Below are positions 30,750 to 33,537 of a stretch of 46,471 nt of DNA, piece after piece. The position numbers and the translations under genes are program-made. This DNA comes from a virus (lineage: Duplodnaviria > Heunggongvirae > Uroviricota > Caudoviricetes): IMG/VR virus record IMGVR_UViG_2606217103_000006; one strand, written 5' to 3'. The notes below the pieces were generated by a model, which saw nothing but the letters and a program-made list of their open reading frames with translations, did no database searches and was not told the DNA's origin. Position 1 is the first letter of the stretch. Each line of letters opens with the position of its first letter.

Positions 30750-30994
30750 CTGAAAAATGATTCTTTAAAATACCTGACATGTAATACAGAAAAAAAACAA
30801 AACCATACCTTAAATAAAAACCTCATCATCAAGCAGATATGCATGGATAAACTACAAGACGAGATATAAACCACCCTGCATTTAAATAAACAATAAACAA
30901 CATCAGAAAAATAATTCTGCTCTATGGTTTACAATCAAAAATATCATTTATACTTTTCAGAACATCACCAGCAAGGCATAAACAAGGAAACTAA

Positions 30995-31330
30995 ATGAAG
31001 TGGATTGTGATTGATACAGTTATCCAGCCATCATGCGGAATATCTTTTTCAGTCATATGGAGTAAAATAAAATTAATAATCTGGTATCAATCGGATGCTT
31101 TCTTACCTCCTGAAAGTATATTTACACTGACTCACACAGGCATCATGCTCAATAACAAAGTGCTACCTGTAACCATTTACAACGTAGTGCCATTCAATAA
31201 AACATTCTGGAATTTAATCAAAAACAGCCAGGAATGCCCTACAAATACAGATAACGTATTGAATGAATGCTTTAATAACCGTTGCACTCTGCAAATATGT
31301 CCTTATGGACTAAAACAACAAAGTCCATAA
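30995..31330 (+). CDS. hypothetical Cys-rich small protein (111 aa), AT-rich cargo
   Basis: RBS AGGAAA 6 nt upstream; 6 Cys; opposite strand to late genes; no recognised family. Confidence 0.4.
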
Positions 31331-31365
31331 GGAGTTTACTCACATCTGACAAAATCAATATAAAC

Positions 31366-31551
31366 AGCCCCTCCGGAGAGGGGCTGGAGAGTGGCGCTAT
31401 GTGCCATTGCATGGTGCCGGGTGCCTCCCGGTGAATTCAGTACCAGCACCTGAATCCGCGATTATCCCATATACCTACTCGCTGATTGCCCCTCCGCACA
31501 GGGGGATTCACCATGCGAAATTTTTTAACAAACTTCCCGCTGGCCAGACAA
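31366..31551 (-). repeat. repeat unit 1: candidate sRNA gene (promoter-like TTGTCT/TTAAAA, ~108-nt structured domain 31409-31516, terminator hairpin 31366-31385)
   Basis: Perfect 8-bp-stem hairpin AGCCCCTC-cgga-GAGGGGCT; domain closed by GCATGGTG/CACCATGC; internal hairpins conserved with unit 2. Confidence 0.55.
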
Positions 31552-31828
31552 TAATCGCCAGCCTGAATTATGAGCAACGTAGCATTTTACGGGAAAACTG
31601 TTTTCTGCAGTAAAAAGGCCCGCCGGAGCGAGCCTGGAAGGATAGCGGTCATGTGATGCCGGTTTCCCGGTAACTCAGCATCGGTATCTGAGTCAACGTT
31701 TTCTCTACTGGGTCATTTCCGATACGTTCCGCCTTCCGGCAGACTTTCATCACGTCAGAAAATATAGCACCCTGAGTAACAGGACAGTACTCAGAATTCA
31801 GGAAACTGTGACACATCCTGCACAGAAA

Positions 31829-32020
31829 AGCCCCTCCGGAGAGGGGCTGAAGTATAGCCTAATTTCTGTCTGTCGCATGGTGCCAGGTGCCTCCCGGTAA
31901 ATTCAGCCTGTCTACTGAATTTGCATGTTCTCTGGATCATACACTTTGCCAGATGCCCCGCCGCTGAGGGGGATTCACCATGCGATGTAATTTTTAACAA
32001 ATTCTCCGGCAGCCAGACAA
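31829..32020 (-). repeat. repeat unit 2: second copy of candidate sRNA gene (domain 31875-31983, terminator hairpin 31829-31848 followed by TTTTCTGT on minus strand)
   Basis: Same stems as unit 1 with different linker/loop sequences. Confidence 0.55.
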
Positions 32021-32221
32021 TCATCAAGCTGTGGAATTGTGAGGTATTTAAAAATTTCAACGGGTAACTGATACCCTGCTAATCGCCTGATGCTTTCTTT
32101 TTCAGCAACGGGAAAGCAACAACCACCACACCCGCCACCAAAACATCATCAGACAGCACCGACATTATCCGGCTGCTGAAGTCCACCATCACCACCAGAA
32201 ACAACAGGAGTGCAACCACAG

Positions 32222-32265
32222 CTGCTTAGAAGGCAATTGCTCTGTCCGGCTGAGCTAACAACGCA
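32222..32265 (-). tRNA. tRNA-Arg(UCU)-like 5' fragment (acceptor, D and anticodon arms only; probable pseudo-tRNA)
   Basis: GCGTTGTTAGCTCAGCCGGACAGAGC...CTTCTAA anticodon loop; no T-arm or 3' acceptor strand found downstream. Confidence 0.4.
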
Positions 32266-32279
32266 GAATACCGATAAAT

Positions 32280-32356
32280 GGACCGCCATCGAGAACTCGA
32301 ACCCCGCGCAACCAGCTTCGAAGGCTGGCGCTCTATCCCGATGAGCTAATGGCGGT
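32280..32356 (-). tRNA. tRNA-Arg (anticodon UCG)
   Basis: Cloverleaf by hand: acceptor CCGCCAT/ATGGCGG, D-arm GCTC..GAGC, anticodon loop CTTCGAA, T-loop TTCGAGT, encoded CCA. Confidence 0.75.
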
Positions 32357-32363
32357 ATGTGAT

Positions 32364-32439
32364 GGTGGCCCTTGCTGGATTTGAACCAGCGACCTGGCGA
32401 TTATGAGTCGCTCGCTCTCACCACTGAGCTAAAGGGCCG
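32364..32439 (-). tRNA. tRNA-Ile2-like (anticodon CAU, lysidine type; formally could read as Met)
   Basis: GGCCCTTTAGCTCAGTGGTGAGAGC...CTCATAA...GGTTCAAATCC...GGGCCACCA; close to remembered E. coli ileX. Confidence 0.85.
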
Positions 32440-32478
32440 GGAGCCGCATAATAACGACGCGTAATTAATTCTTCAATA

Positions 32479-33537
32479 TCATCCGCTCTGGCTGACTAAA
32501 TCCTGTACTTCCCGAACCGTCTGCTCAAAACGTTCAGTCTCCAGCTCAACGCCAATTGCACGACGCCCGAGCGCCAGTGCCGCTTTCACTGTCGAACCCG
32601 ACCCCATGAAAAAATCTGCAATCAGGTCACCCGGACGACTGCTAGCGCTGATTATCTGCTGCAGCATTTCTGCCGGTTTTTCGCACGGATGTTTCCCGGG
32701 ATAGAACTGCACCGGTTTATGCGTCCACACATCGGTATACGGCACCTGCACCGTCACGCCAAAATACCGCCGCAGATGTTTATATTCACTCAGCAGCTCC
32801 GCATACTGCCGGTTCAGTGAGGTATACGTATCCACCAGCTGGTGGTGGAGCTTTTCCAGTTCACCACGCCGATGCTTCTCTTCTGCCACCCGGGCAAACA
32901 GCGCCTGTAATTTCAGATAATCGCTTTCATTCGGTAGCTGCCACTGACTGGCACTGAACCAGTGCGACACCATGTTTTTCTTTCCTGTGGCATCTGCAAT
33001 CTGTTTTGCCGTTATCCCCAGGGCCGCGCGCGCATCACGAAAGTAAGAAATCAGCGGGGCCATCACATGCTGTTTCAGTGCACTGCCCTTCGCCGCATAC
33101 CCGGCATCTTTCGGACGATACGGCCCCTGATAATGTTCCGCGAACAGAATGCGCTCTGTGGCGGGGAAATACGCCCGCAGGCTTTCCTTGTTGCACCCGT
33201 TCCAGCGTCCGGACGGCTTCGCCCAGATAATATGGTTCAGCACACTGAAGCGTTCACGCATCATGATTTCGATATCAGATGCCCGGCGATGACCACAGAA
33301 CAGGTAAAGACTTCCGGCAGGTTTCAGCACCCGCCAGAACTGCGCCAGACACTGGTCCAGCCACTTCAGGTAATCATCGTCGCCCTTCCACTGGTTATCC
33401 CAGCCCTCAGGCTTCACTTTAAAGTACGGCGGGTCCGTAACTATCAGGTCAACAGAATTTTCGGGTAACGACCGGATAAATTCCAGGCAGTCGGCGTTGA
33501 TTAACTCACAACTGGATATTTTTACAGTATTAAGCAT
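32479..33537 (-). CDS. DNA methyltransferase (N6-adenine/N4-cytosine type, beta-class motif order)
   Basis: TDPPY motif IV near N-terminus and FFMGSGST motif I near C-terminus; 352 aa. Confidence 0.8.
   Translation of the reverse strand: MLNTVKISSCELINADCLEFIRSLPENSVDLIVTDPPYFKVKPEGWDNQWKGDDDYLKWLDQCLAQFWRVLKPAGSLYLFCGHRRASDIEIMMRERFSVLNHIIWAKPSGRWNGCNKESLRAYFPATERILFAEHYQGPYRPKDAGYAAKGSALKQHVMAPLISYFRDARAALGITAKQIADATGKKNMVSHWFSASQWQLPNESDYLKLQALFARVAEEKHRRGELEKLHHQLVDTYTSLNRQYAELLSEYKHLRRYFGVTVQVPYTDVWTHKPVQFYPGKHPCEKPAEMLQQIISASSRPGDLIADFFMGSGSTVKAALALGRRAIGVELETERFEQTVREVQDLVSQSG

Follow-up and report, generated by a model that had tools for sequence, protein, structure and literature searches.

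We analysed the window IMGVR_UViG_2606217103_000006, a virus record from IMG/VR (Caudoviricetes) that was scanned over its whole length of 46,471 nucleotides (nt). Its late operon lies on the minus strand and is listed here from high to low coordinates. In this order it carries the late antiterminator gene Q, a terminator, an open reading frame (ORF) of 65 amino acids (aa), a DNA methylase gene, tRNA-Ile2(CAU), tRNA-Arg(UCG), and a 42-nt 5′ part of argO, the gene for tRNA-Arg(UCU). The third tRNA gene ends there and is followed directly by a 5′-truncated tciB, a gene for a DUF3927 protein. Comparison with related prophages suggests that this half tRNA is most probably the scar of a single deletion of about 655 base pairs (bp) in a toxin-free lambdoid late region of the type that carries tciA and tciB (tciAB-type). 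We take the tci gene names to come from the annotation of phage P1; a literature search on TciA, TciB, and DUF3927 gave nothing useful beyond papers on P1-like plasmid prophages.

The junction between argO and tciB

A preliminary description of this DNA had regarded the third tRNA gene as truncated, and our analysis agreed with it. Of the cloverleaf, the remnant still encodes the acceptor strand at the 5′ end, the D arm, the TCT-bearing anticodon loop, and three of the five nt on the 3′ side of the anticodon stem. Missing are the final two nt of that stem, the variable loop and T arm, and the acceptor strand at the 3′ end with CCA. When the suggested tRNA scan was run, ARAGORN found only two tRNAs in the whole window (Met/Ile2-CAT and Arg-TCG) and Rfam the same two, with no intact third tRNA. 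A permissive Rfam search (E ≤ 1) over 30500–34200 added no third tRNA, and nothing was called at 32188–32264. Beyond nt 42 there was no match to argO, and the next 35 nt failed to complete a cloverleaf; the 77 nt from 32264 folded into no cloverleaf and had a stability like that of shuffled sequence (z = 0.26). The 3′ half of argO was absent from the entire window when searched with 35-nt and 21-nt patterns at up to 3 mismatches. As a positive control, ARAGORN called tRNA-Arg(tct) in four relatives with an intact gene (loci L001, L006, L009, and L011), and it called no third tRNA in two other loci with the same junction. Rfam likewise called the intact gene in those four relatives. The argO remnant would accordingly be expected to be non-functional and incapable of aminoacylation.

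A three-way alignment placed the junction unambiguously at 32223/32222 of the window, where argO nt 42 is joined directly to tciB nt 22. The window bases read ...CTTCTAAGCA on the left and GCTGTGGTTGCACTCC... on the right; the left side corresponds to argO nt 1–42 in L001, L006, and L009, and the right side to tciB from nt 22 in phages JLK-2012 and Evi and in Escherichia coli UPEC-455U. With the junction marked by a slash, the argO row of the alignment runs ...CTTCTAAGCA/ATCGGTCACTGG..., the tciB row GTGACGGTAAAAATGCGTCTG/GCTGTGGTTGC..., and the window row ...CTTCTAAGCA/GCTGTGGTTGC.... We found no microhomology at the endpoints, that is, no bases shared with the closest tciB alleles (JLK-2012 and UPEC-455U). 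A 3-nt GCA overlap with other tciB alleles (L005 and L010), which came from BLAST extension, was judged out of register from the protein sequences alone.

Alignment with the late region of a Shiga toxin (Stx) phage, the second check that had been proposed, mapped the breakpoint to the same place. Phage Stx2a_1447 (L001, AP012536) was 93% identical to the window over 34027–32223, and the alignment stopped exactly at argO nt 42, so homology to Stx2 phages does end inside the third tRNA, as had been described. The alternative of an arrangement with no breakpoint in the tRNA therefore does not apply. Similarity to Stx2a_1447 resumed weakly (68%) at window position 31532, equivalent to the DNA immediately past stx2B.

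The sequence past the break had been called novel, which it is not: it is tciB without its first 21 nt (seven codons), hereafter tciB′. This remnant is 95% identical to tciB of JLK-2012 and UPEC-455U, and its PF13064 match spans profile positions 11–50 of 53. It is not a full-length DUF3927 gene (about 54 aa), as the start codon and the first seven codons are missing. The overlap with the tciA stop codon was lost together with the start codon, and with it the predicted translational coupling to tciA that this overlap provides. A tblastn search with TciA gave no match in the window, and the tciA–tciB overlap was likewise not found there.

The longest frame left in tciB′ is a small hydrophobic ORF of 46 aa with a GTG start (32079–32219, minus strand); two codons ahead of the first GTG that could serve as a start, the anticodon loop contributes an in-frame TAA. 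We examined the tciB′ frame in five other junction-bearing sequences (L002, L003, L064, L066, and L084). In all five, a 1-nt deletion (GGGTGT-GTGG; window 32120–32130) frameshifts the C-terminal third. Unlike these carriers, the window keeps the ancestral frame and C-terminus, which fits an earlier, less decayed form of the deleted allele. These comparisons point to tciB′ as a decaying remnant. A selected new ORF created at the junction was also considered, and the frameshifting deletion in all five other carriers argues against it.

Undeleted relatives and the origin of the junction

The intact counterpart of the region was found in several relatives. A tciB homologue preceded by tciA (TerB family) is annotated in phage JLK-2012, and the tciA–tciB pair lies between the late tRNAs and STnc100 or nanS-p in phages PPyecE_EH1910 and Evi and in E. 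coli E2, UPEC-455U, CFIAFB20190157, and ABU 83972. Several of these relatives carry extra DNA exactly at the position of the window junction and are colinear with the window on both sides; the insert measures 659 bp in Evi and CFIAFB20190157 and 654 bp in UPEC-455U and ABU 83972. For the latter two strains, the left flank (258 nt) is 95.0% and the right flank (183 nt) 95.6% identical to the window. This extra DNA contains the 3′ half of argO, a hairpin and its T-run, and a spacer, then the complete tciA gene and the seven codons that open tciB; the annotations give the remainder of tRNA-Arg, a protein of the TerB family, and the beginning of a DUF3927 protein.

The tciAB-type late regions without stx (Evi, LR597642; ABU 83972; UPEC-455U) share their backbone with the window, including DUF968, RusA, a 273-aa Q, the methylase, three tRNAs, tciB, STnc100, and nanS-p, although Evi differs from the others in that the methylase is absent. 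The window differs from all of them by the missing 654–659 bp. CFIAFB20190157 also carries iraM, which ABU 83972 and UPEC-455U lack. Because colinear relatives with an intact argO–hairpin–tciA–tciB order exist, the break is best read as a deletion endpoint and not as the crossover of a cargo swap.

We propose that the ancestral region had the order Q, tR′, 65-aa ORF, methylase, ileZ, argN, argO, hairpin, tciA, tciB, STnc100 array, iraM (on the opposite strand), nanS-p, and lysis genes. Phage Evi and the E. coli prophages of ABU 83972 and UPEC-455U still have close versions of this order. One illegitimate deletion of about 655 bp would then have fused argO nt 42 to tciB nt 22, removing the 3′ half of the tRNA, the post-argO hairpin, all of tciA, and the start and first seven codons of tciB. 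This event would have been intramolecular and would have happened once. As a consequence, the phage would have lost its own supply of tRNA-Arg(UCU) and of the TerB-like protein, and late transcription from pR′ would now run from argN into the small RNA (sRNA) array without passing the post-argO hairpin.

The junction is not peculiar to the window. With a 96-nt query across it (at least 80% covered), we detected it in 325 of 5,426 complete E. coli genomes (about 6%), and the intact argO–tciA–tciB arrangement was present in 790 complete E. coli genomes (at least 80% covered). The preliminary description had allowed that the arrangement might simply be a common non-Stx lambdoid configuration, and the 325 genomes bear this out. 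Among 120 IMG/VR loci with the 5′ half of argO, 117 had an intact tRNA and 3 the same junction, with no other truncation. Recurrent recombination at argO as a hotspot was ruled out, as these 120 loci contained a single junction type and the intact form only. In strain DA33133, the whole region is 97% identical to the window, and the NCBI Prokaryotic Genome Annotation Pipeline (PGAP) annotates two tRNAs followed by a DUF3927 protein, IraM, and the esterase.

The junction also occurs on backbones without the methylase, for example in phage vB_EcoS-640R1 (L002). In this phage, the methylase is absent and the argN position (about 4120–4200) holds diverged sequence that neither Rfam nor the depositors called a tRNA; the junction and the module downstream of it nevertheless share 97% identity with the window. 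Taken together, the distribution suggests that the junction is an allele of single origin that has spread.

Several observations weigh against a simple deletion. No undeleted relative is more than 96% identical to the window on both flanks, and past tciB identity falls to about 80% in the best of them, owing to a different STnc100 variant. A search of the complete E. coli genomes for the exact undeleted parent did not find it: a composite of the window flanks and the 654-bp insert of UPEC-455U was at least 80% covered in only one genome, at 88% identity, and relatives otherwise stood at about 95%. Sequence comparison cannot separate an intramolecular deletion from recombination between two co-resident prophages. 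In the window, tciB′ retains an open frame of 46 aa, and relatives have a DUF3927 protein in their PGAP annotation, so that residual expression of tciB′ is possible. Finally, the deleted form may have been selected, given that the junction is present in 6% of complete genomes.

The main rival to a deletion in cis is an illegitimate join of two co-resident lambdoid prophages, one contributing methylase–ileZ–argN–argO and the other tciAB–STnc100–iraM, and we consider it unlikely. Mosaicism is pronounced among lambdoid prophages, and the region is present several times in many E. coli genomes, in up to 16 places per genome. Moreover, the closest tciB in the phage collection (95.1%) is that of JLK-2012, whose tRNA set is different (Asn-Thr-Gly), and undeleted relatives reach only about 95% identity to the window in their flanks. 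Against such a join, argO, a 170-nt interval, tciA, and tciB are found in cis in 790 genomes. UPEC-455U and ABU 83972 match both flanks equally well (95.0% and 95.6%), and a simple deletion in cis therefore needs fewer events.

A different question is whether the deleted allele has been favoured and is not neutral, which we regard as quite improbable. Its spread over about 6% of genomes and several backbones could then be explained in one of two ways. Without argO, tciA, and the hairpin after argO, Q-antiterminated late transcription might enter the STnc100 array unimpeded, or a chimeric transcript might arise in which a shortened TciB membrane peptide has the 5′ half of the tRNA as its processing leader.

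The preliminary description had proposed that the cargo was swapped by recombination within the tRNA. On this account, an Stx phage would have lost or exchanged stxAB through a crossover inside argO, importing a Cys-rich ORF and repeat units. The 93% homology to Stx2a phages does end at argO nt 42, and 124 records of Stx2a-converting phages, besides many of other Stx phages, contain the methylase–tRNA module. The colinear undeleted relatives nevertheless make such a swap very improbable. The DNA to the right of the break is 5′-truncated tciB and no new cassette, stx-free relatives with intact argO–tciAB are common (790 genomes), and the edge of the stx or tciAB cargo is reached only about 50 nt past an intact argO. 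In addition, iraM and STnc100 are also found downstream of stx2AB in Stx2a phages, and the window holds no stx remnant.

tRNA genes are well-known sites of integration, and here the break falls within an anticodon stem, but splitting of the tRNA by a mobile element or by site-specific integration has a negligible chance of being correct, because the 3′ half of argO is nowhere in the 46-kb window even with 3 mismatches allowed, no integrase or transposase in the ORF list adjoins the junction, the two endpoints have no common core sequence, and the junction is colinear with undeleted relatives minus 654–659 bp. A single deletion in cis thus remains the reading that we prefer.

The stx-equivalent slot and its constant neighbours

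The region matched 378 records in the phage collection, most of them Stx-converting phages. The methylase–ileZ–argN–argO module is indeed that of Stx2 phages, as had been described, with the 93% identity to Stx2a_1447 noted above; it is not specific to them, since it also occurs in stx-free genomes. In the Stx2-phage cluster of the 933W/Sp5 type, represented by Stx2a_1447, the order of the 65-aa ORF, methylase, ileZ, argN, and argO nt 1–42 is the same as in the window, and the downstream neighbours STnc100, the iraM homologue, and nanS-p also correspond, STnc100 and nanS-p at lower identity. The window is unlike Stx2a_1447 in that argO is cut after nt 42, stx2AB is missing, Q is unrelated at the DNA level, and the lysis genes are of the class II holin/YdfR type. 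The reported absence of toxin genes was confirmed by tblastn with Stx2A and Stx2B, which gave nothing significant in the window.

We then aligned the DNA past argO in Stx2a_1447 and five non-Stx relatives with an intact argO, four of which carry tciAB. Stx2a_1447 and the four tciAB carriers remained alignable for about 50 nt past argO, through the hairpin, and then diverged into stx2A or the tciA leader. Because similarity continues over this distance before divergence, the normal left edge of the variable slot lies outside the tRNA. The break inside the tRNA of the window is, on this comparison, a secondary deletion endpoint. The slot for stx2AB can be placed after the post-argO hairpin and before the first STnc100 gene; in the lineage of the window it appears to have held tciAB.

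In the 120 IMG/VR loci, intact argO was followed by STnc100 alone, tciAB, a segment of the mEp460 type, or stx2AB. In phage mEp460_ev081 (L007, 1967–2500) and about 25 IMG/VR loci, an intact argO precedes about 566 bp of unrelated DNA and then a truncated tciB. The truncation point corresponds to window position 32178, which differs from the window junction, and this is an independent rearrangement of the slot.

The preliminary description had placed an AT-rich, Cys-rich ORF and two repeat units in the position of stxAB. They do not take that position, as Stx2a_1447 carries stx2AB and, after it, both STnc100 and an unannotated iraM homologue. Since both elements also lie downstream of stx2AB in Stx2a phages, STnc100 and iraM are not what replaced stx.

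The two repeat units themselves are real. They measure about 190 nt each (31356–31544 and 31820–32013) and score far above the RF02076 gathering threshold of 47 bits as STnc100-family sRNA genes. A degenerate element between them has its own terminator hairpin (31635–31616), which is a third copy of the terminator repeat. Copy 2 aligns with the STnc100 just after stx2B in Stx2a_1447, from position 5770 onwards, where Rfam calls STnc100 at 5758–5973. In every relative examined, Rfam called STnc100 directly after tciB or stx2B. STnc100 has been reported 75 nt downstream of the stx2 operon, and members of the family are reported to be expressed in Shiga toxin-producing E. coli (PMC12370729). A preprint relates STnc100 to the prophage sRNA PasD and places it close to Q and the gene for the sialate esterase (bioRxiv 10.64898/2026.05.13.724894).

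Like the Hfq-associated, prophage-encoded sRNAs of the STnc100/PasD family, the predicted copies of the window lie between Q and the sialate esterase gene and have their own terminators. The window differs from the described STnc100 in having a tandem array of two good copies with a degenerate copy in the middle. This middle unit (31609–31784) might be a PasD-type sRNA. The IMG/VR locus IMGVR_UViG_3300029191_000019 (L066) has the same junction, but at about 4084–4279 a single hybrid STnc100 copy stands in place of the window's array. The hybrid implies unequal recombination between STnc100 copies, and copy number varies among carriers.

The Cys-rich ORF is AT-rich, as had been stated (30–36% GC), and oriented against the late operon. 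It belongs to the IraM/IraL family of RssB anti-adaptors; the match to the IraM subfamily model NF007393 covers residues 1–110, and PGAP names the product "anti-adapter protein IraM" in a 97%-identical locus. IraM (K-12, e14 region) and IraL (CFT073) are prophage- or island-borne proteins that block RssB and stabilise RpoS (PMC4045071). The window ORF is likewise prophage-borne and matches the IraM model over its full length, and its family membership predicts a role as an anti-adaptor that binds RssB and stabilises RpoS.

It is a distinct variant, 72% identical in aa sequence to the intact homologue of 107 codons in Stx2a_1447 (5975–6304, minus strand), which lies between STnc100 and nanS-p. 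The AP012536 record has no annotation for this homologue or for STnc100 at 5758–5973 (plus strand). iraM homologues are also present in two IMG/VR loci that carry stx2.

Late-region layout, other elements, and significance

The order of the late region agreed with the preliminary description, from Q and the terminator (34027–34012) through the methylase to the SASA esterase and the genes for holin, SAR-type lysozyme, Rz, and Rz1 (Table 1). For Q, which had been listed as part of an Stx-like order, the position held and homology at the DNA level did not. By blastn, the Q DNA is unrelated to that of Stx2a_1447, and similarity begins only past Q at 34027, so that the terminator downstream of Q forms the left edge of the module common to Stx2a phages.

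Table 1. Predicted features of the late region in the window, in the direction of late transcription
Feature	Coordinates	Strand	Evidence
Late antiterminator Q, 273 aa	34110–34931	−	Pfam PF03589 Antiterm, 165.8 bits
tR′-like terminator (G+C-rich hairpin and T-run)	34012–34027	−	Terminator scan; downstream of Q
65-aa ORF	33688–33885	−	ORF list; conserved ahead of methylase in both Stx2 and non-Stx relatives
Orphan DNA methyltransferase, 352 aa	32479–33537	−	Pfam PF01555, 150.5 bits; PADLOC MTase_II, 3e-164
tRNA with CAU anticodon (ileZ, tRNA-Ile2), intact	32363–32438	−	ARAGORN; Rfam tRNA, 72.5 bits
tRNA-Arg(UCG) (argN), intact	32279–32355	−	ARAGORN; Rfam tRNA, 50.3 bits
argO remnant, nt 1–42 of 77-nt tRNA-Arg(UCU)	32223–32264	−	42/42 identity to argO of Stx2a_1447 (L001)
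tciB′ (DUF3927 gene without first 21 nt, 7 codons)	32079–32222	−	Pfam PF13064, 65.6 bits
STnc100-family sRNA gene, copy 1	31820–32013	−	Rfam RF02076, 140.5 bits; intrinsic terminator 31848–31829
Degenerate STnc100-like element between the two good copies	31609–31784	−	RF02076, 30 bits, E 6.6e-4, below gathering
STnc100-family sRNA gene, copy 2	31356–31544	−	Rfam RF02076, 132.8 bits; terminator 31386–31365
IraM/IraL-family RssB anti-adaptor homologue, 111 aa	30995–31330	+	NCBIfam NF007393, 162 bits (cut-off 121)
nanS-p-type sialate O-acetylesterase, 622 aa	28881–30749	−	Pfam DUF1737, SASA, DUF6645
Lysis cassette	27152–28808	−	ORF list; PGAP names of homologous genes in L003
Class II holin	28515–28808	−	Lysis cassette
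YdfR-family ORF	28196–28510	−	Lysis cassette
Lysozyme with hydrophobic N-terminus, SAR-type	27607–28140	−	Lysis cassette
Rz	27152–27625	−	Embedded Rz1 at 27205–27396

Homologues of the 65-aa ORF are annotated as coding sequences in L001, L003, L009, and L011; the sole match in a family search was a weak TrmB-like one below the cut-off. The methyltransferase DNA is 93% identical to that of Stx2a_1447, and the copies of the first tRNA in relatives are annotated as ileZ or tRNA-Ile. On the right, the cargo region has the nanS-p-type esterase gene as its constant flank; this gene is 88% identical at the DNA level to yjhS of JLK-2012.

Other elements were detected elsewhere in the window. Just downstream of Rz/Rz1, a convergent, slightly overlapping gene pair (25106–26735) encodes a 355-aa protein (25106–26173, plus strand) that PADLOC matched to PD-Lambda-2_C (4e-32) and "beta", and a 206-aa protein (26115–26735, minus strand) matched to "cll" (4e-31). 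The pair resembles a moron for anti-phage defence placed in the post-lysis slot. At 37376–38170 (plus strand), an ORF of 264 aa that is similar to Ser/Thr protein kinases, with PADLOC matches to mad6 (1e-37) and PD-T4-6 (1e-32), is probably a prophage-borne single-gene defence kinase. Rfam matches at gathering level comprised sok antitoxin RNA (36811–37135, minus strand), which overlaps a Hok-like ORF at 36811–37023, DicF (44894–44945, plus strand), and IS009 (1378–1576, minus strand).

All parts of the late region belong to described families and the junction is present in hundreds of public genomes, and in this sense the finding is an ordinary one that matters little beyond annotation. It clarifies the stx-equivalent slot in a widespread family of E. 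coli prophages, which can contain stx2AB, tciAB, other DNA, or nothing. The argO′–′tciB junction could serve as a typing marker for the spread of the module between phage backbones. Reference Stx2a phage records leave the intact iraM homologue and STnc100 beside stx2 without annotation. As constant neighbours of this slot, STnc100 and iraM should not be taken, when present in a prophage, as a sign of a lost toxin cassette.

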